Shown piece by piece: positions 39,479 to 49,212 of a DNA stretch of 64,000 bases. Made by a program: the position numbers and the translations under genes. How positions within the stretch are numbered: position 1 is the first letter of the stretch; each line of letters begins with the position of its first letter. The notes under the pieces are model-generated. The model was not told the DNA's origin and did not search any database. It worked only from the letters and a program-made list of their open reading frames with translations. Source of the stretch: Escherichia phage UoN_LDJ77_1; sequence record OK570375; one strand, given 5' to 3'.

Positions 39479-41066
<1,588 letters not shown>

Positions 41067-41096
41067 AATAAAATGGGCCTTGCGGCCCACTCCTTA
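41067..41096 (-). promoter_or_regulatory. split ribosome-binding site of denA: AAGGAG, 14-nt hairpin, AUG
   Basis: Minus strand AAGGAG-UG-GGCCGCAAGGCCC-AUUUUAUU-AUG; GNRA-type hairpin between SD and ATG 41066. Confidence 0.5.
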
Positions 41097-41597
41097 AAAA
41101 TATTTTTTAAAACTCATCATAACTTTATCATCAACATCATTATCAATCTGTGCAACAAGATAAGATGACAGTTCTACTTCTTGTGGCGCGGATTGAACAT
41201 TATCAGAATTAAGGTATTCACGAATCCAAGGATATGGATGTTTAACCGGAGCATCGGTAATTGGGCATGGAAGACCGCACTGTTTCATACGAGATACAGT
41301 TAAATAATCAATAAAGCTCCACATGCTATTTGTATTTAATCCAGGAACATCGCCGTCTTTAAATAAATGAATTGCCCAATCTTTTTCTTGGCGGTTAACT
41401 TCCATGAAAATATCAACTGCTTCTTGTTCACACTCTTGAGCAATTTTAACCCATTCATCGCCATCAGTGCCAAGTTGAAGTTGACGAATAATATATTGGG
41501 TGCCTTTAAGGTGAAGCTGCTCATCACGTGCAATGAACTTCATAATCTTGGCATTACCTTCCATGATTTCCATATTCTTGTGGAAGTTAAAGGTACC
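41094..41597 (-). CDS. nrdB: ribonucleotide reductase beta subunit NrdB, exon 2 (5' boundary approximate)
   Basis: Aligns with NrdB C-terminal half (MEGNAK...ARDEQLH iron ligand); reading frame open upstream only to 41624. Confidence 0.85.
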   Translation of the reverse strand, partial: GTFNFHKNMEIMEGNAKIMKFIARDEQLHLKGTQYIIRQLQLGTDGDEWVKIAQECEQEAVDIFMEVNRQEKDWAIHLFKDGDVPGLNTNSMWSFIDYLTVSRMKQCGLPCPITDAPVKHPYPWIREYLNSDNVQSAPQEVELSSYLVAQIDNDVDDKVMMSFKKYF

Positions 41598-41732
41598 GTT
41601 ATGTTCGATTGAGCTCGCTAATTCTCAACCCGTTCTCTTATGAACTGCTACATATTACTATGCAGACCAGACTATATCACAATCCCAGAGGGATTCTCCC
41701 CATTTCGAGTCGCTTGACCCTACGTCCGAAGA

Positions 41733-42542
41733 CTAGTCGTTGAACCTTGCTTTACAATTGTCGCCGTGCCATCGTTTATATGTTGATGGTGATAAATCTT
41801 TCTTATCACAATATGGACAATTCAATTGAATTCTATTTGGATTTAATTTACATCTGTCATTATGTTTTAGATAAAATCCAGGACCTTTACCAATGTGACC
41901 GCAGAAATCACATGTGATTTCTTTTTGTGCAGGATGGGTCCCGTTCTTAACCATTTCTAATGTTTTTGCTGATGTTCTTTTCTTATGGTCTTCTGACAAG
42001 AAATGATGTGAACCGTCATTTACCCGTTTTGATTGAGTTTCTGACTGCATTTTACCACCGCAAAATACATGAGTACCTTCTTTTATAGCTGCAATATTGC
42101 GTTCTTTAACTTTTGCAATATGCTCAGCTTGTTGAAAATTATGTATACCTAATGCAACTCTATTTAAATTAGATTTACGCTGTATTTCACCGTCTAAAAG
42201 ATGAAATGTACCATTTTCTATCTTAGATTTAATAGAGGCAATATTTTTAGCTCGTACTTCAGGGATATTAAAAATCTGGATTTCTCTAGATTTTGCGGCT
42301 TTAGAAGCTAATTCAGAAATTTCTTCAGGAGAATATTTCATTCTAAGCTTTATAGCATGACAAGCCTGGTAATCTTTTTGAGCTAAATGTATATCATAAT
42401 GTTCCTGTATAGAAAGGCACATCAAATTATCTAAATCATTATTTTCACGGTTACCGTCTTTATGATGGATTTCGTATGTTCTTCCATCAGAATCTTTAGG
42501 TATAGGTCCGTTAGCATCTATCCAAATTTTTCTATAGTTCAA
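41733..42542 (-). CDS. I-TevIII-like HNH homing endonuclease with C-terminal zinc finger
   Basis: 269-aa ORF inside intron; HNH motif EIHHKDGNRENN...QEH; CDFCGH/CPYCDK zinc finger; apparent TTG start preceded by AAGAGGA. Confidence 0.8.
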   Translation of the reverse strand: MNYRKIWIDANGPIPKDSDGRTYEIHHKDGNRENNDLDNLMCLSIQEHYDIHLAQKDYQACHAIKLRMKYSPEEISELASKAAKSREIQIFNIPEVRAKNIASIKSKIENGTFHLLDGEIQRKSNLNRVALGIHNFQQAEHIAKVKERNIAAIKEGTHVFCGGKMQSETQSKRVNDGSHHFLSEDHKKRTSAKTLEMVKNGTHPAQKEITCDFCGHIGKGPGFYLKHNDRCKLNPNRIQLNCPYCDKKDLSPSTYKRWHGDNCKARFND

Positions 42543-42569
42543 TTGTGCATCCTCTTAAAAGTATAATCA

Positions 42570-42577
42570 TATTTATA
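42570..42577 (-). promoter_or_regulatory. late promoter TATAAATA inside nrdB intron (I-TevIII-like ORF)
   Basis: Minus-strand TATAAATA 28 nt upstream of endonuclease ORF start. Confidence 0.6.
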
Positions 42578-42688
42578 TTATACTAATTAAAGGTGCAAGC
42601 AAAACCTTGGCTGCTAGTTTTCCTATAAAGGACTTTCCAGCAATTAAAGGAGTTTTCGATAAACGTTACCGTTTAAAGGCGCATTTTA

Positions 42689-43363
42689 CGCAAAAGATAC
42701 ATAAAAACGAATAGCTTCTAAGGCATTAATAACGTGTAAACAGAGGTAAAGAGACTTCATTAAAGCACGTTTAGCTTCGGCTTCTTGTTTAATAGCTCGG
42801 TTTAAACGAAAGTCGGCATCAGGAGATTCTTTAGCTAGTTCTACAAATTCTTTAGCATTTTCCCATTCACGGGTTTTAACCAAGACATCATCATAATAGC
42901 GACCGATAGATTCAGCACGTTTCATGATAGCTTCATCTAATACAATCTCATCAAATACCTTCGATGGATCAGTATAAAGATTTCGCATGATATGAGTATA
43001 TGAACGACTGTGAATAGTTTCACTAAAAGTCCATGTAGCAACCCATGTATCAAGGCTTGGGTCTGAAATTAATGACATAAGTACAGCAGACGGCGCACGG
43101 CCCTGAATGCTATCCAAAAGTGATTGATACTTCAGGTTGTTAGTAAAAATATTTTGCTGATACTGAGGAAGCTTATTAAACTGTGCAGCATCCATCATTA
43201 AGTTTACTTCTTCGGGACGCCAGAAAAATGATAAGGACTTCTCTGTAAGTTCTTCAAATACTCGATGCCGTTGAATATCATAACGCGCAATACCAAGACC
43301 TGAACCAAAAAACATAGGTTCTTTTAAAACATCAACTGGATTTGTATTAAAAACTGTGCTCAT
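42689..43363 (-). CDS. nrdB: ribonucleotide reductase beta subunit NrdB, exon 1
   Basis: 225 codons ending ...RFYVSFA then in-frame stop inside the intron. Confidence 0.85.
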
Positions 43364-43414
43364 AAATTTTCCGCTTAGTTAATAGTTGGTGACTCGTCCA
43401 TGAGTCAAATTATA

Positions 43415-44404
43415 TCATAATTTACAGGATGAACAATCTTCAGCTTTTGGAGTTTCTATTTCATAATCATCAGTACCAGAACCATCACGGGTATTATGAT
43501 AATAGAAATTTTTTCCGCCAAAATACCAAAAATACAAAAGGTCATCAATCATTATTGACATTGGAACCTTGCCTTTAGGGAAGATTTGGGGGTCATAATA
43601 TGTATTCGCTGAAGCTGATTGACACACCCATTTCAGCATAATAGCTACCTGCGTAAGATAAGGTTTATTACCTTTCTTAGCTAATTTCCATGTATAGTCG
43701 TAAAGGTCTATGTTATGCTCAATATTGGGCACGACCTGATTAAAGGAGCCCTCTTTTGATTCTTTAACAGAGACTGGTCCACGTGGAGGCTCGATACCGT
43801 TTGTACTGTTAGAAACTTGGGAAGATGACTCACATGGCATAAGTGCTGATAATGTGCTATTACGGATGCCAAAGAGCTTAAGGTCTTCCCGCAGCGACGA
43901 CCAGTCACAAACGTATTTTGGAGCTGCGATTTGGTCAATCTTTTTATTGTACCAGTCGATAGGTAATTCGCCTCGAGACCAACGAGTGTCTGAATAATAT
44001 TCGCAAGGTCCTTTTTCTTTGGCGAGCTTAATGGATGCTTTAATGAGTCCATACTGTAATCTCTCAAATAGTTCATGTGTTAAATCGTTAGCATCTTCAT
44101 AAGAAGCAAAGTTACTTGCCAGCCAAGCTGCATAGTTAGTAACACCTACACCGAGGTTACGACGCTTTTTAGCTTTTTCTGCTTCAGGAACCGGATATCC
44201 TTGGTAATCCAAAAGATTATCAAGAGCACGAACTTGAACTTCTGCTAATTCATTAATTTTATCTTGGTCTTGCCAGTCAAAATTATCTAGTACGAATGCA
44301 GAGAGAGTACAAAGCCCCACTTCTCCCTTGTTTTCAATAACTTTTATTGTAGTATACTCATCATCTTCGTAAAATTCATCTACAAATTCATAATCAATAT
44401 TCAT
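43415..44404 (-). CDS. nrdA: ribonucleotide reductase alpha subunit, C-terminal part (NrdA-b or exon 2)
   Basis: 329-aa ORF; NrdA homology from GEVGLCTLSAF to C-terminal CSSCKL; first ~26 residues are acidic and not NrdA-like. Confidence 0.85.
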   Translation of the reverse strand: MNIDYEFVDEFYEDDEYTTIKVIENKGEVGLCTLSAFVLDNFDWQDQDKINELAEVQVRALDNLLDYQGYPVPEAEKAKKRRNLGVGVTNYAAWLASNFASYEDANDLTHELFERLQYGLIKASIKLAKEKGPCEYYSDTRWSRGELPIDWYNKKIDQIAAPKYVCDWSSLREDLKLFGIRNSTLSALMPCESSSQVSNSTNGIEPPRGPVSVKESKEGSFNQVVPNIEHNIDLYDYTWKLAKKGNKPYLTQVAIMLKWVCQSASANTYYDPQIFPKGKVPMSIMIDDLLYFWYFGGKNFYYHNTRDGSGTDDYEIETPKAEDCSSCKL

Positions 44405-45104
44405 TTAATTCTTTTACCTTTTTTCTAGTAATTCCTAAAGTTTTAGATGCTCGATGTATTGATTGATATTCTATACCGTTTATTTTTACAGCAATTAAGT
44501 TATGGGGTTTTAATCCCTTTGGATGAGGTTTACTGACGAAAACTAAATTATCAAGTTCTGAAATCTTATCCAATTTCTTACACTTAAATCCTTTGTGATG
44601 CGACCGTTTACCTTTACAAACGGCTGACATTGCAGATGGATTTAAATTATGCTCTTTACAAAATTCGTTAAGACCTCGATGAATTTCCTCATGACCATCC
44701 GGAAATGTAAACACCCAAGATGTTTGAAGTCGAGATTTAACTTCTGGAGACATAGGAATACCTTTGTTCCAAGCTGGTTTTCCTTTATTATTTTCAGATA
44801 CAGAAATAGCCAATTTTCTTCTAAGCCACCCATGGCGTTTATTGGTGTTCTTTCGTTCAATATTATCTTCAGAATAAACACACATCATATTAGCGGCAAA
44901 TATCAATTTATGATTATTTGGATATATCTTTACTAATAATTGATGAGCTATGTAATGCTCTTCTGGTGTCAAATCTACCAGGTTTTCCTTTGTATCAGAA
45001 CCACCAATACACAGAGGTATAATATGGTGTGATTCGGTATAGCAATCTAATTTTCTATTCTTAGCTTTAGAAATAAGGTTATTGTAAATTTTAAAATAAT
45101 CCAT
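44394..45104 (-). CDS. HNH endonuclease inserted within nrdA
   Basis: 236-aa ORF; HNH motif ESHHIIPLCIGGSDTKENLV...EEHYIAHQ; strong SD (AGAGGA) upstream. Confidence 0.85.
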   Translation of the reverse strand: MDYFKIYNNLISKAKNRKLDCYTESHHIIPLCIGGSDTKENLVDLTPEEHYIAHQLLVKIYPNNHKLIFAANMMCVYSEDNIERKNTNKRHGWLRRKLAISVSENNKGKPAWNKGIPMSPEVKSRLQTSWVFTFPDGHEEIHRGLNEFCKEHNLNPSAMSAVCKGKRSHHKGFKCKKLDKISELDNLVFVSKPHPKGLKPHNLIAVKINGIEYQSIHRASKTLGITRKKVKELNEY

Positions 45105-45149
45105 AACTTTTCCTCTTGTTATGGATTATTTATTAACGGTCTGTGTACT

Positions 45150-46583
45150 TTATTTGCTTTGAATTATACCGCCAGGATTAGCTTCATAAAACTTAGCTAC
45201 ATCCGACTTCTTAATTTTGATTAAACGAGTTTGTTGGCTATTCACATCATTTGTTGGAATAGCAATTTCACAACATAAGTTACTCTGACGAATAGGTGCC
45301 TTTTCACGAATAAACGGAGTATAGTTATTCGTATTATCAATGAACTGTACATAAATCCTTGCTGTTCCTGAACGTTCAGTCATGAGCAATTCAAATAGTT
45401 CACGGGCTTTAATACGCTTTTTACGAATATTAGGGTCTTTTTCTGCTGCTTCGTATAATTCACGGAAACGGTCTTGGTCTTTAAAATAAGAATAATAAAG
45501 CTCGCCACCCATTTCATGCGGACTGAACAAAGTAATGTAATCGTTCTTTCCGAATCGTTCCATCATCAAATCATTCAGCTGAACACCATAATCCATATGA
45601 CGGATACGGTTTTCTTCTACGCCTTTGTTATTTTTCAAAACGAGAAGATTTTCAACTTCCAAATGCCAAATAGGATAATAAGCAGTAGCAGCGCCGCCAC
45701 GAATTCCGCCCTGTGAGCATGATTTAACAGCAGTCTGAAAATGTTTCCAAAAAGGAATAACCCCAGTATGGCGTACTTCACCCATGCCAATCTTAGAACC
45801 TTCGGCACGAATCATACCAACGTTAATACCAATTCCAGCGCGTTTAGAGATATATTCAACAATTGAAGCGGAAGCCTTATTGATAGACTTCAGCGAATCA
45901 CCTGCCTCAATAACAACACATGAACTAAACTGTCGAGTCGGAGTACGACAACCAGCCATAATAGGAGTTGGCAGTGAAATCTGTCGAGTAGATACTGCTT
46001 CATAAAAACGGATAACATGTTTTAATCTATCAACAGGTTCATCTTGATGCAATGCCATTCCAATAGCCATAAATGCAAACTGTGGAGTTTCATAAATTTG
46101 ACCAGTGGTTTTATCTTTAACTAGATATTTTTCTTTTAATTGCATCGCCCCAGAATAAGTAAATTCCATATCCCGTTCATGCTTAATTTTTGATTCTAAA
46201 AATGTAATTTCTTCTGCTGAATATTTTGACAATAATTCAGGGTCATATTTACCTTCATTTACACAGTAAGAAATATGGTCAATAAATGAACGTGGTTCAT
46301 ACTGCCCATAAACATGCTTACGAAGAGCGAACATTAAACAGCGTGCAGCTACATATTGATAATCAGGCTCTTCAACCGAAATAGAATTCGCAGCAGCCTT
46401 AATGACAATAGTCTGAATGTCATCAGTTGTCATTCCATCACGGAGATATGATTTAATATTTTCATATAATTCATAAGGATCTACTGATGTTCCCTCAGAT
46501 GCCCAAGATAAAACTTTAATAATTTTTTGCGGGTCAAAGCTCTGAGAAACACCACTACTTTTGATAACATTAATTAATTGCAT
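45150..46583 (-). CDS. nrdA: ribonucleotide reductase alpha subunit, N-terminal part (NrdA-a or exon 1)
   Basis: 477-aa ORF; NrdA homology through active-site motif SNLCCEIAIPTNDVN; last ~30 residues not NrdA-like. Confidence 0.85.
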   Translation of the reverse strand: MQLINVIKSSGVSQSFDPQKIIKVLSWASEGTSVDPYELYENIKSYLRDGMTTDDIQTIVIKAAANSISVEEPDYQYVAARCLMFALRKHVYGQYEPRSFIDHISYCVNEGKYDPELLSKYSAEEITFLESKIKHERDMEFTYSGAMQLKEKYLVKDKTTGQIYETPQFAFMAIGMALHQDEPVDRLKHVIRFYEAVSTRQISLPTPIMAGCRTPTRQFSSCVVIEAGDSLKSINKASASIVEYISKRAGIGINVGMIRAEGSKIGMGEVRHTGVIPFWKHFQTAVKSCSQGGIRGGAATAYYPIWHLEVENLLVLKNNKGVEENRIRHMDYGVQLNDLMMERFGKNDYITLFSPHEMGGELYYSYFKDQDRFRELYEAAEKDPNIRKKRIKARELFELLMTERSGTARIYVQFIDNTNNYTPFIREKAPIRQSNLCCEIAIPTNDVNSQQTRLIKIKKSDVAKFYEANPGGIIQSK

Positions 46584-46900
46584 AAGTCCTCAACTTGAAA
46601 ATCGTCTTTAAACAGTCGGTTAACTATATGAGCTATTATATCACCATGACACGGCTTTGGTTTACATGTGCATCCTAGCCTCATTCCACGTAAAGGCTCT
46701 AAATGTGCTTTAGTTATTTCTCCGGATTTAATTCGACGTATAAAATCTTTTTTGAATAATTCAATGGCAGCCTCCCGGCTGCCAGCATCTTTACCGACGT
46801 AATTTCCCCAAAATGTACCACGGTGAATATTAACATCAAAGTCGGATTTGTATTTATTCACTACCCGACATAGACGGCCCGCGCGGTGATAATTCGGCAT
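46574..46900 (-). CDS. DUF4326-like Cys/His protein
   Basis: 108-aa ORF; motifs HRGTFWGN and [13 protein letters not shown]. Confidence 0.6.
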
Positions 46901-47117
46901 ATTGTTTTTCCGTTAAAACAGTAATATCGTAGTAACAGTCAGAAGAAGTTTTAACTGTGGAAATTTTATTATCAAAATACTCACGAGTCATTTTATGAGT
47001 ATAGTATTTTTTACCATAAATGATAATAGGCTGTTCTGGTCCTGGAACTTCTAACTCGCTTGGGTTAGGAAGTGTAAAAAGAACAACGCCAGAAGTATCT
47101 TTAAATCGTAAAATCAT
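46854..47117 (-). CDS. hypothetical protein
   Basis: 87-aa ORF overlapping downstream ORF by 47 nt in a different frame. Confidence 0.45.
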
Positions 47118-47974
47118 ATTGCCATTTTCCCTTTAATTGCTGGATGCGATTCATAATTTTCAAGGATAAAATCTTTCGGTTTCATGTATTCAGTTAACCA
47201 GTAAAGCTGTGTTTCGGTGTCACAATTTCCAAACTCTATAGGCCAATCAATTTTAAGTTCACACAGTTCTTTAGGCTCACGACGTAAAATTTCTTTACAT
47301 TGTTCTACGTGATTCATATAGATATGAGTATTACCACCAGAAAATATCAAATCTCCTGGGATAAGATTACACATCTTAGCTACAATATGAACTAGTGCAG
47401 CATATGATGCAATATTAAATGGAAGACCGAGGAAAACATCTACTGATCGTTGATACCACTGAAGGTCAAGGTATCCATTACGAACATTAAATTGATAAAA
47501 CATATGACAAGGCGGTAATGCCATCTGCTTGAGTTCAGCTGGATTCCATGCTGAAACAATTTGACGCCTATCATTTGGCAGTTTTTTAATACGATCAATA
47601 ACTTCTATAATTTGGTCTACACCACCAAAATCACGCCACTGTTTTCCATAAATTGGACCAAGTTCACCACTATGGTATCCTAAATCTTTTGCTTGATTTT
47701 CGTAATTTTCATCCCAGACTGTTTTGCCTTGGATTAACGAATCATGCTGAATTAATCGTAAATCATTGACATTTGTGCTTCCTGATAAGAACCACAATAA
47801 CTCAGAAATGCAAGCTTTCCAGGCGAGCTTTTTAGTTGTTACTGCAGGAAAACCTTTGGTTAAATCCCAACGCAATTTAGTACCGAACAAAGCAATTGTT
47901 CCTGTGCCTGTTCGGTCATCAGTTTCATAACCATTTTCAAAAATGTCTTTAATTAAATCTTGGTATTGTTTCAT
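47114..47974 (-). CDS. td: thymidylate synthase (uninterrupted)
   Basis: Contiguous 286-aa ORF with active-site LPPCH; no intron. Confidence 0.95.
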
Positions 47975-48018
47975 TTAGTACCTTATATAAATTATAATAC
48001 ATTTTATGAAGCTAATAA

Positions 48019-48366
48019 TTAATATGGTTTAGCAACAAATTTTCTCTCAATTTCAGGTGTGAAATATAATTCTTTACCGCGTTTAGAAAAGCGACCAATA
48101 ATATGATAATTATTCTCATCAAACGTGATATTACCAATATCCATAGCTTTCAACCAAATATCGATATTTCTATCCAGCTTTATGTCAAAATTCCAATACG
48201 GAGAACTATTACCGAAAATACTGCAAGCGGATTCAGTGAAACAACTGCTATAAATCTTGTCTTTAGGAACTACTAATTGATAGACGCCTTTAATAAACTG
48301 AGGACCCTGCCATTTAGGTTGTTTCACGTCTTTTTCTAATAGAATAGGGTAATAATTAAAATTCAT
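48019..48366 (-). CDS. hypothetical protein between frd and td
   Basis: 115-aa ORF; no recognisable motif. Confidence 0.5.
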   Translation of the reverse strand: MNFNYYPILLEKDVKQPKWQGPQFIKGVYQLVVPKDKIYSSCFTESACSIFGNSSPYWNFDIKLDRNIDIWLKAMDIGNITFDENNYHIIGRFSKRGKELYFTPEIERKFVAKPY

Positions 48367-48385
48367 ATTTCCGCCACGCGTTATT

Positions 48386-49212
<827 letters not shown>

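Follow-up and report, generated by a model that had tools for sequence, protein, structure and literature searches.

A mobile mobE cassette and a probable Aeh1-type split nrdA in T4-like coliphages

The ribonucleotide reductase (RNR) gene nrdA of Escherichia phage UoN_LDJ77_1 (sequence record OK570375; the whole stretch of 64,000 nucleotides (nt) analyzed is hereafter called the window) is interrupted by a gene for a mobE-like HNH homing endonuclease. With high confidence, the locus is considered to be a genes-in-pieces RNR of the type described in Aeromonas phage Aeh1, i.e., one in which two fragments of the NrdA protein are translated separately. The kind is already known (2007, 2011), and the coliphage locus adds a further case to it. 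As far as can be judged from the sequence, it displays the traits characteristic of an Aeh1-type split nrdA, the late promoter of mobE being a candidate.

On the minus strand, the nrdA N-fragment is followed by the endonuclease open reading frame (ORF) and then by the nrdA C-fragment, so the interruption of nrdA proposed in a preliminary description of the window is real. The features of the locus are as follows (aa, amino acids; CTE and NTE, C- and N-terminal extensions; dG, folding free energy):

46583..45150, minus strand: nrdA N-fragment ORF, 477 aa, 54.5 kDa
45153..45236, minus strand: CTE of the N-fragment, 28 codons, QQTRLIKIKKSDVAKFYEANPGGIIQSK, pI 10.0; stop codon at 45152..45150
45131..45094, minus strand: RNA hairpin, 14 bp, dG -14.5 kcal/mol, z = -5.3
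45104..44394, minus strand: mobE-like HNH homing endonuclease ORF, 236 aa, 27.2 kDa, pI 9.6
44404..43415, minus strand: nrdA C-fragment ORF, 329 aa, 37.7 kDa
44336..44404, minus strand: NTE of the C-fragment, MNIDYEFVDEFYEDDEYTTIKVI, acidic, pI 4.05, about 23 aa
44312..44335, minus strand: diverged target replacement, codons E24-L31 (ENKGEVGL) in place of PDAEIGL, corresponding to E. coli R1 D454-L461
45235..44312, minus strand: the whole mobile cassette, 924 nt, delimited by alignment to an uninterrupted allele and by a drop in diversity

The N-fragment comprises the ATP-cone and all-alpha domains as well as the first half of the RNR barrel, and its catalytic residues are Cys222 (E. coli C225) and N435/C437/E439 (E. 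coli N437/C439/E441); over residues 1-449, its identity to many uninterrupted 754-aa NrdA proteins of T4-like phages reaches 100%. The match to NrdA extends through the active-site motif (...SNLCCEIAIPTNDVNS), as had been noticed, and the non-NrdA codons preceding the stop number 28, not about 30. The C-fragment represents the second barrel half with Cys32 (E. coli C462), Y301/Y302 (Y730/Y731), and the C-terminal pair C324/C327. Its NrdA homology begins at E24 (ENKGEVGL, equivalent to E. coli D454-L461), i.e., somewhat before the GEVGL stretch from which it had been thought to resume. Hence, the full set of catalytic residues is present and shared out over both ORFs. The Pfam profile of the RNR barrel is divided accordingly, with its positions 1-221 on the N-fragment and 219-523 on the C-fragment. 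Mapped onto E. coli R1, the core of the N-fragment ends at about D454-455, and E24-C32 of the C-fragment correspond to D454-C462, placing the split between the codons of the thiyl-radical cysteine (E. coli C439) and the redox cysteine (C462).

The C-fragment ATG lies inside the final codons of the endonuclease ORF (an 11-nt overlap, AAATGAATATTGA) and is directly preceded by an in-frame TAA stop, in agreement with the preliminary description. A Shine-Dalgarno-like AAGGT is found inside mobE at 44420..44416 (position -16); in Aeh1, AGGAG likewise starts at -16, and in each lineage such an element is located 9-16 nt 5' of the ATG. The three ORFs are intact in all 12 alleles compared, as well as in Aeh1 and in the metagenomic relatives L052 and L054; these relatives were recovered by a search with the C-fragment, and their contigs carry the same split. 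A terminator scan revealed no coding-strand terminator-like site above chance inside the cassette; overall, the scans of the region for sigma-70-type promoters and terminators remained at chance level and are uninformative on separate transcription of the C-fragment. The spacer between nrdA and nrdB in the window is 51 nt long and harbors no ORF.

The suggestion that two NrdA fragments are translated separately, as in Aeh1, is well supported by a comparison of the two loci. They share the split site (the cysteine is Cys31 in the Aeh1 C-fragment and Cys32 in the window), the gene order, nearly equal sizes (nrdA-A 473 aa, mobE 237 aa, and nrdA-B 323 aa in Aeh1 against 477, 236, and 329 aa), a homologous endonuclease, a homologous basic CTE and acidic NTE, a hairpin at the mobE start, and the AT-rich character of the cassette. 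Aeh1 has a 46-nt spacer, and its mobE/nrdA-B overlap is 14 nt long vs. 11 nt in the window. At the same time, the Aeh1 NrdA halves are 57% and 51% identical to those of the window, and Aeh1 represents Cinqassovirus, whereas the carriers considered here are Tequatrovirus and Mosigvirus coliphages. The window hairpin differs in sequence and pairs the AUG, while that of Aeh1 pairs the Shine-Dalgarno sequence. The coliphage cassette is also polymorphic, with two variants moving between nrdA alleles. The original evidence that Aeh1 nrdA does not splice reportedly comes from Friedrich et al. (2007, PNAS), and Gibb and Edgell (2007, 2009) are said to have worked on Aeh1 nrdA-a / mobE / nrdA-b.

Charged tails and the fate of the interruption

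The basic CTE of the window is homologous to the CTEs of Aeh1, L052, and L054: RLIKIKKSDVAKF of the window aligns with MLFKVKKSEVDKF of Aeh1, and the corresponding stretches in the metagenomic relatives read ...TRLIKIKKSDVPQF... (L054) and ...TLVKIRKSDVSKF... (L052). In the acidic NTE, EFYEDDEYTTI of the window aligns with EVYEDEEYTTV of Aeh1, so the motifs common to both phages are L[IF]K[IV]KKS[DE]V.KF (CTE) and [FV]YED[DE]EYTT[IV] (NTE). The NTE motif, in the form [FV]YEDDEYTT[ILV], is kept even in C-fragments with an overall identity of merely 53-79%. Taken together, the tail motifs can be followed to NrdA identities of about 50%. In shuffle tests of the CTE, the observed score was attained by one of 5000 shuffles for Aeh1 and by none of 5000 for L052; for the NTE, none of 5000 attained it in the comparison with Aeh1, L052, or P0011.

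The ratio of nonsynonymous to synonymous differences (pN/pS) among the 12 alleles is uninformative for the tails (too few substitutions) and was replaced by comparisons with L054, L052, and Aeh1; the selection test rests on these deeper, mostly metagenomic lineages because the coliphage tails are nearly invariant. When the window is compared with L054, pS is 0.73 and pN 0.16 across the 53 tail codons, the values for the NrdA cores being 0.69-0.77 and 0.16-0.18, respectively. Against this diverged lineage, the tails are thus under protein-level purifying selection equal to that of the enzyme core. In the comparison of the window with Aeh1, identical tail residues are frequently encoded by different codons.

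A relative lacking the endonuclease gene, L057 (ENA ERZ27315285, contig k141_73620; 1978..4508), has its nrdA divided at the identical position; the N-fragment ends in a basic tail, the C-fragment starts with an acidic head, and the two are separated by a 77-nt spacer. Apparently, it represents the cassette after the loss of the endonuclease gene with the tails retained; the tail similarity is weak, making the common origin uncertain.

The role of such tails is documented in Aeh1, where they (basic, pI 10.4, and acidic, pI 3.8) were detected by mass spectrometry, unprocessed, in the mature proteins; their deletion lowered the activity about 2000-fold and abolished dimerization and holoenzyme formation (PMC3045599). 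The tails of Aeh1 are required for dimerization of the heterodimer and for NrdB binding but not for the binding of the fragments to each other (PMC3045599). The earlier idea that the acidic head of the C-fragment could be an assembly tag gains support from this comparison, with the refinement that fragment-fragment binding does not depend on it in Aeh1; the head is indeed acidic, and its unique part is about 23 aa long instead of the 26 aa initially assumed.

The interruption could also have inactivated nrdA, leaving the fragments as recent pseudogene pieces in a phage that depends on the RNR of its host and on the anaerobic NrdD it encodes. The aerobic RNR of a phage is dispensable in the laboratory (T4), which counts for this explanation, and the cassette is recent in the coliphage alleles, hence the intact flanks alone are no proof of function. 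Still, protein-level purifying selection on the tails is meaningful solely if the fragments are used, no allele has lost either fragment or any catalytic residue, the same is true of lineages with as little as about 50% NrdA identity, and the split together with the tails persists after the apparent loss of the endonuclease gene in L057. Since the split enzyme of Aeh1 is, moreover, fully active (PMC3045599), inactivation is believed to be highly unlikely.

Another explanation, yet harder to sustain, is that the insert is a group I intron carrying an endonuclease gene, so that splicing restores a single nrdA mRNA. Introns of this sort occur in the nucleotide-metabolism genes of T4-like phages, including nrdB 3 kb away in the window; the reading frames alone are compatible with a frame-preserving junction, and intron-borne endonuclease genes typically have an RNA hairpin over the start codon. 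The covariance search for group I structure, proposed in the preliminary description as a check, lent no support to an intron: in the Rfam scan of 41000..48500 (E <= 10), no RF00028 match fell within 44312..45235, the sole match there being a snoRNA at chance level (E = 2.3), while the nrdB intron was detected in the same scan as a positive control (41888..41648, 29.9 bits, E = 1.3e-4, under the gathering score of the family). Against an intron also speak the small size of the sequence outside the endonuclease ORF, only about 210 nt, and its conservation as in-frame amino acids across lineages with saturated synonymous sites. Furthermore, these parts are retained in L057 after the apparent loss of the endonuclease gene, and the 5' junction follows C, not the usual U. 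The homologous arrangement in Aeh1 yields two polypeptides with the tails retained (PMC3045599), and its non-splicing nature was restated in a later paper (PMC7344957).

The least credible of the three alternatives is that the tails are halves of a (degenerate) split intein whose trans-splicing ligates full-length NrdA, as in the so-called fractured genes. The order of N-part, HNH endonuclease gene, and C-part is the same in the latter (PMC2677866), a true split intein occurs about 10 codons upstream in nrdA of Yersinia phage TG1 and in many metagenomic sequences, and a split-intein origin was raised as a possibility by Crona et al. (PMC3045599). The tails total about 51 aa, vs. roughly 130 aa in the TG1 intein halves, the CTE starts without a Cys/Ser nucleophile context, and there is no terminal His-Asn before Cys, Ser, or Thr. 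No Hint or intein family was returned by Pfam searches with the fragments and seven isolated tails (E <= 10), and the profile-profile comparison (hhalign) of the NTE family with the C-intein family gave a probability of 0.2%. Finally, the Aeh1 tails are still present in the mature proteins (PMC3045599), which speaks against their excision.

The cassette and its horizontal spread

In comparison with the uninterrupted allele of phage Pu-Krd-SF4 (754 aa), the 924 nt of the cassette stand in for 20 nt (CTGATGCTGAAATTGGATTG, coding for PDAEIGL), and outside the insert this allele is 97.4% identical to the window. The uninterrupted nrdA around the insertion site reads ...AATAGCCCTGATGCTGAAATTGGATTGTGTACT.... 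The cassette comprises the CTE, the spacer with the hairpin, mobE, the NTE, and the diverged replacement of the target sequence. Its G+C content is 31.6% vs. 37-39% in the flanks. The same boundaries are evident from the diversity across the 12 alleles, which is about 0.1 per site in nrdA, drops to 0.00-0.02 from position 45235, and rises again at 44312. The ENKGEVGL stretch belongs to the low-diversity cassette, and about half of its nucleotides differ from those of the PDAEIGL stretch. By analogy with the mobA element of T4 (see below), an allele already holding the cassette is probably shielded from cleavage by this divergence.

Approximately 615-630 phage records carry nrdA at >= 90% identity, and the whole insert is present in 34 independent phage records (about 5%; the number includes GenBank/RefSeq duplicates), excluding the assembly artifact that had been considered as an explanation. 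The carriers are Tequatrovirus and Mosigvirus phages from Escherichia, Yersinia, Salmonella, and Shigella, in the existing annotations of which the locus figures as two nrdA coding sequences (CDSs) and a homing endonuclease. The identities between carriers are as follows:

window and JM17: 5' flank 77.7%, 3' flank 79.4%, cassette 98.8%
HY01 and ZQ3: 5' flank 76.8%, 3' flank 78.6%, cassette 99.8%
window and HY01: 5' flank 96.4%, 3' flank 96.1%, cassette 90.6%

Two cassette variants therefore exist, each in two diverged nrdA backgrounds, which requires repeated recent transfer or recombination. The cassette is moving horizontally between diverged nrdA alleles and across genera.

One of the cassette bearers, Escherichia phage vB_Eco_F26 (L043, 4527..6095), has a 522-aa ORF annotated as 'endonuclease' between the nrdA C-fragment and nrdB, the position occupied by the 51-nt spacer in the window.

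The mobE gene and its probable control

The endonuclease encoded in the cassette matches PHROG 655 'homing endonuclease' with E = 1e-58 and displays, according to Pfam, an HNH motif at residues 23-54 and an I-HmuI NUMOD-like domain at 135-173. Its alignment with MobE of Aeh1, another check suggested beforehand, revealed 45% identity over the full length (233 aligned residues). The identity to MobE of T4 is 46% over residues 1-133, leaving the C-terminal half of the window protein unmatched; the free-standing mobE of T4 shares the homologous HNH nuclease domain and the location in the nrd operon but is situated between nrdA and nrdB, where it splits nothing, while mobE of the window resides inside nrdA. 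The gene is intact in 12 of 12 alleles, with a pN/pS of 0.23.

In a search of 50,697 phage records with Aeh1 MobE, the nrdA-embedded genes came next after Aeh1 itself, and the other full-length relatives were at most about 31% identical. The scan of IMG/VR with a MobE alignment returned Aeh1 as the sole split nrdA; the further loci from this source were short mobE-like genes located 3' of an intact nrdA or in unrelated contexts.

The center of mobE (44750..44560, codons ~118-190, encompassing the NUMOD-like domain) exists in two allelic types with a nucleotide difference of 15-19%. The types differ by about 20 amino-acid changes in this central part, the nuclease domain and both ends being nearly identical, and mobE of phage F2 is a mosaic of the two. 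The cause of this variation may be a diversifying DNA-binding specificity or else recombination among cassettes.

As asserted in the preliminary description, the endonuclease ORF has its own Shine-Dalgarno sequence (GAGG, 45115..45112, 7 nt before the ATG), with the qualification that it is situated in the loop of an RNA hairpin whose 3' arm pairs the AUG (45104..45102). None of 200 shuffled sequences folded equally well. Two base pairs of the hairpin are changed in L054 in a compensatory manner (A-U to G-C and C-G to U-A), while L052 and Aeh1 possess different hairpins at the same place (z from -5.9 to -6.2). The 5' arm is overlapped by AATAAATA (45134..45127), matching the T4 late-promoter box TATAAATA at seven of eight positions and thus a candidate late promoter of mobE; an ATAAATA or CTAAATA box is found in or near the 5' arm or the loop in all four lineages.

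Control by a hairpin and a late promoter is on record for Aeh1 mobE as well as for I-TevI, I-TevII, and I-TevIII (PMC2988022). The hairpin and candidate promoter of the window match the layout of Aeh1 mobE and of the T4 intron endonucleases, suggesting by analogy a similar timing of expression.

Known systems, proposed mechanism, and significance

Several points weigh against regarding the locus as an Aeh1-type genes-in-pieces RNR. Thus, the absence of splicing and the assembly of the fragments are extrapolated to the coliphage from Aeh1. The C-fragment has a poor Shine-Dalgarno-like element far from its ATG, though the spacing equals that in Aeh1, and the late-promoter box is imperfect. The similarity of some tails to those of the window is weak: in the NTE test, 171 of 5000 shuffles attained the observed score for L056 and 430 of 5000 for L057, and 29 of 5000 did so in the CTE test for L057. 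Within Tequatrovirus/Mosigvirus, the tails are nearly invariant (3-4 variable sites each), and the low pN/pS of the flanks in the 12 alleles is no proof of constraint after the split because the cassette arrived recently.

Apart from Aeh1, the locus resembles other insertions in phage genes. In T4, the insertion of mobA splits the large subunit of topoisomerase into genes 39 and 60 (bioRxiv 10.1101/2022.08.31.505936). There, too, an HNH cassette of the Mob family extends the upstream product at its C-terminus and the downstream one at its N-terminus, a diverged homologous stretch takes the place of the deleted target, and no splicing is involved in the assembly of the split products. The cassette interrupts another gene, however, the extensions are longer (~44 aa), and the 50-nt translational bypass element has no counterpart in the window.

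The genes fractured by split inteins (Dassa et al. 2009, PMC2677866), exemplified by TG1 nrdA, have the same gene order and, in TG1, the same host gene, but they encode N- and C-intein halves (CLSGES... and ...ILVHN|C) with covalent ligation expected, whereas the tails of the window lack intein features. In TG1 (Yersinia phage vB_YenM_TG1, KP202158, L058, 1418..5065), the split intein is located at the Cys439 codon of nrdA, with a 316-aa HNH gene between the halves; intein-split nrdA was also encountered in P0004, P0005, P0012, P0021, P0060, P0066, P0070, and P0102. This short stretch of nrdA appears as an insertion hot spot neutralized in two different ways.

The group I introns of T4 (td, nrdB, and nrdD, with I-TevI, I-TevII, and I-TevIII) likewise place an endonuclease gene inside a nucleotide-metabolism gene and control it by a hairpin and late-promoter arrangement. 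Unlike them, the cassette of the window has no ribozyme core, and the interruption would be neutralized at the protein level, not at the RNA level. In the window itself, nrdB (~42685..41649, minus strand) has a group I intron with a full-length, 269-aa I-TevIII-like HNH ORF (42542..41733), upstream of which an exact TATAAATA is found at 42577..42570, while td (47974..47114) is uninterrupted.

The split RNR of Aeh1 long passed for an isolated case: in 2010, nothing in the databases matched its tails, and among ~1200 nrdA sequences there was no split of this kind. The 2022 preprint mentions "MobE_split" cases in passing, and the alignment in its supplementary file 13 contains the coliphage MobE labeled as Bacillus cereus (bioRxiv 10.1101/2022.08.31.505936), probably a record contaminated by a T4-like coliphage. 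Save this passing remark and this alignment, no paper on the coliphage case itself was found in the literature. Added here are the exact boundaries of the cassette, the discordance of identities between genera, the selection test of the tails, the hairpin covariation, and the relative without the endonuclease gene.

The following mechanism can be envisioned. The cassette with its MobE-family endonuclease ends the upstream half of nrdA with an in-frame basic tail and a stop codon; the downstream half receives from it a start codon and an acidic head, together with the eight displaced codons in diverged form. The spread of the cassette would most likely start when the endonuclease cuts an uninterrupted nrdA in a mixed infection; the break would then be repaired by recombination with the genome bearing the cassette. 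No splicing would take place, and both nrdA halves together with mobE would reside on one message. In read-through transcripts, the hairpin over the start codon would hold the translation of mobE down, and the late-promoter-like box in the 5' arm may free it late in infection, as judged from Aeh1 and T4. The 54.5-kDa and 37.7-kDa fragments would then join non-covalently into a composite active site, the oppositely charged tails being needed, by analogy with Aeh1, for heterodimer dimerization and NrdB binding.

These findings support the notion that the endonuclease gene carries along the means to repair the harm done by its own insertion. A broader interpretation, toward which the balance tips only slightly, is that the cassette is a self-contained 'cut, insert and re-stitch' module, still spreading and made up of an endonuclease gene, a pair of mutually complementary assembly peptides, and a version of the target that resists cleavage. 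If this is true, the module crosses between nrdA genes differing by more than 20%, and its peptides outlast the endonuclease gene; mobile elements would then have, beside introns and inteins, a third, non-covalent route to neutralize their insertion in essential genes. The coliphage version would make this route genetically tractable in E. coli and T4-like phages and might provide a portable pair of peptides for the reassembly of split proteins.

Overall, the same device as in Aeh1 is now found in ordinary T4-like coliphages. The main value of the locus lies in a tractable coliphage model and in a correction of annotation: the two "nrdA" CDSs of these phages are to be taken as neither pseudogenes nor exons. 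With it, the way in which two short charged peptides make a divided active-site barrel whole again can be studied in E. coli.

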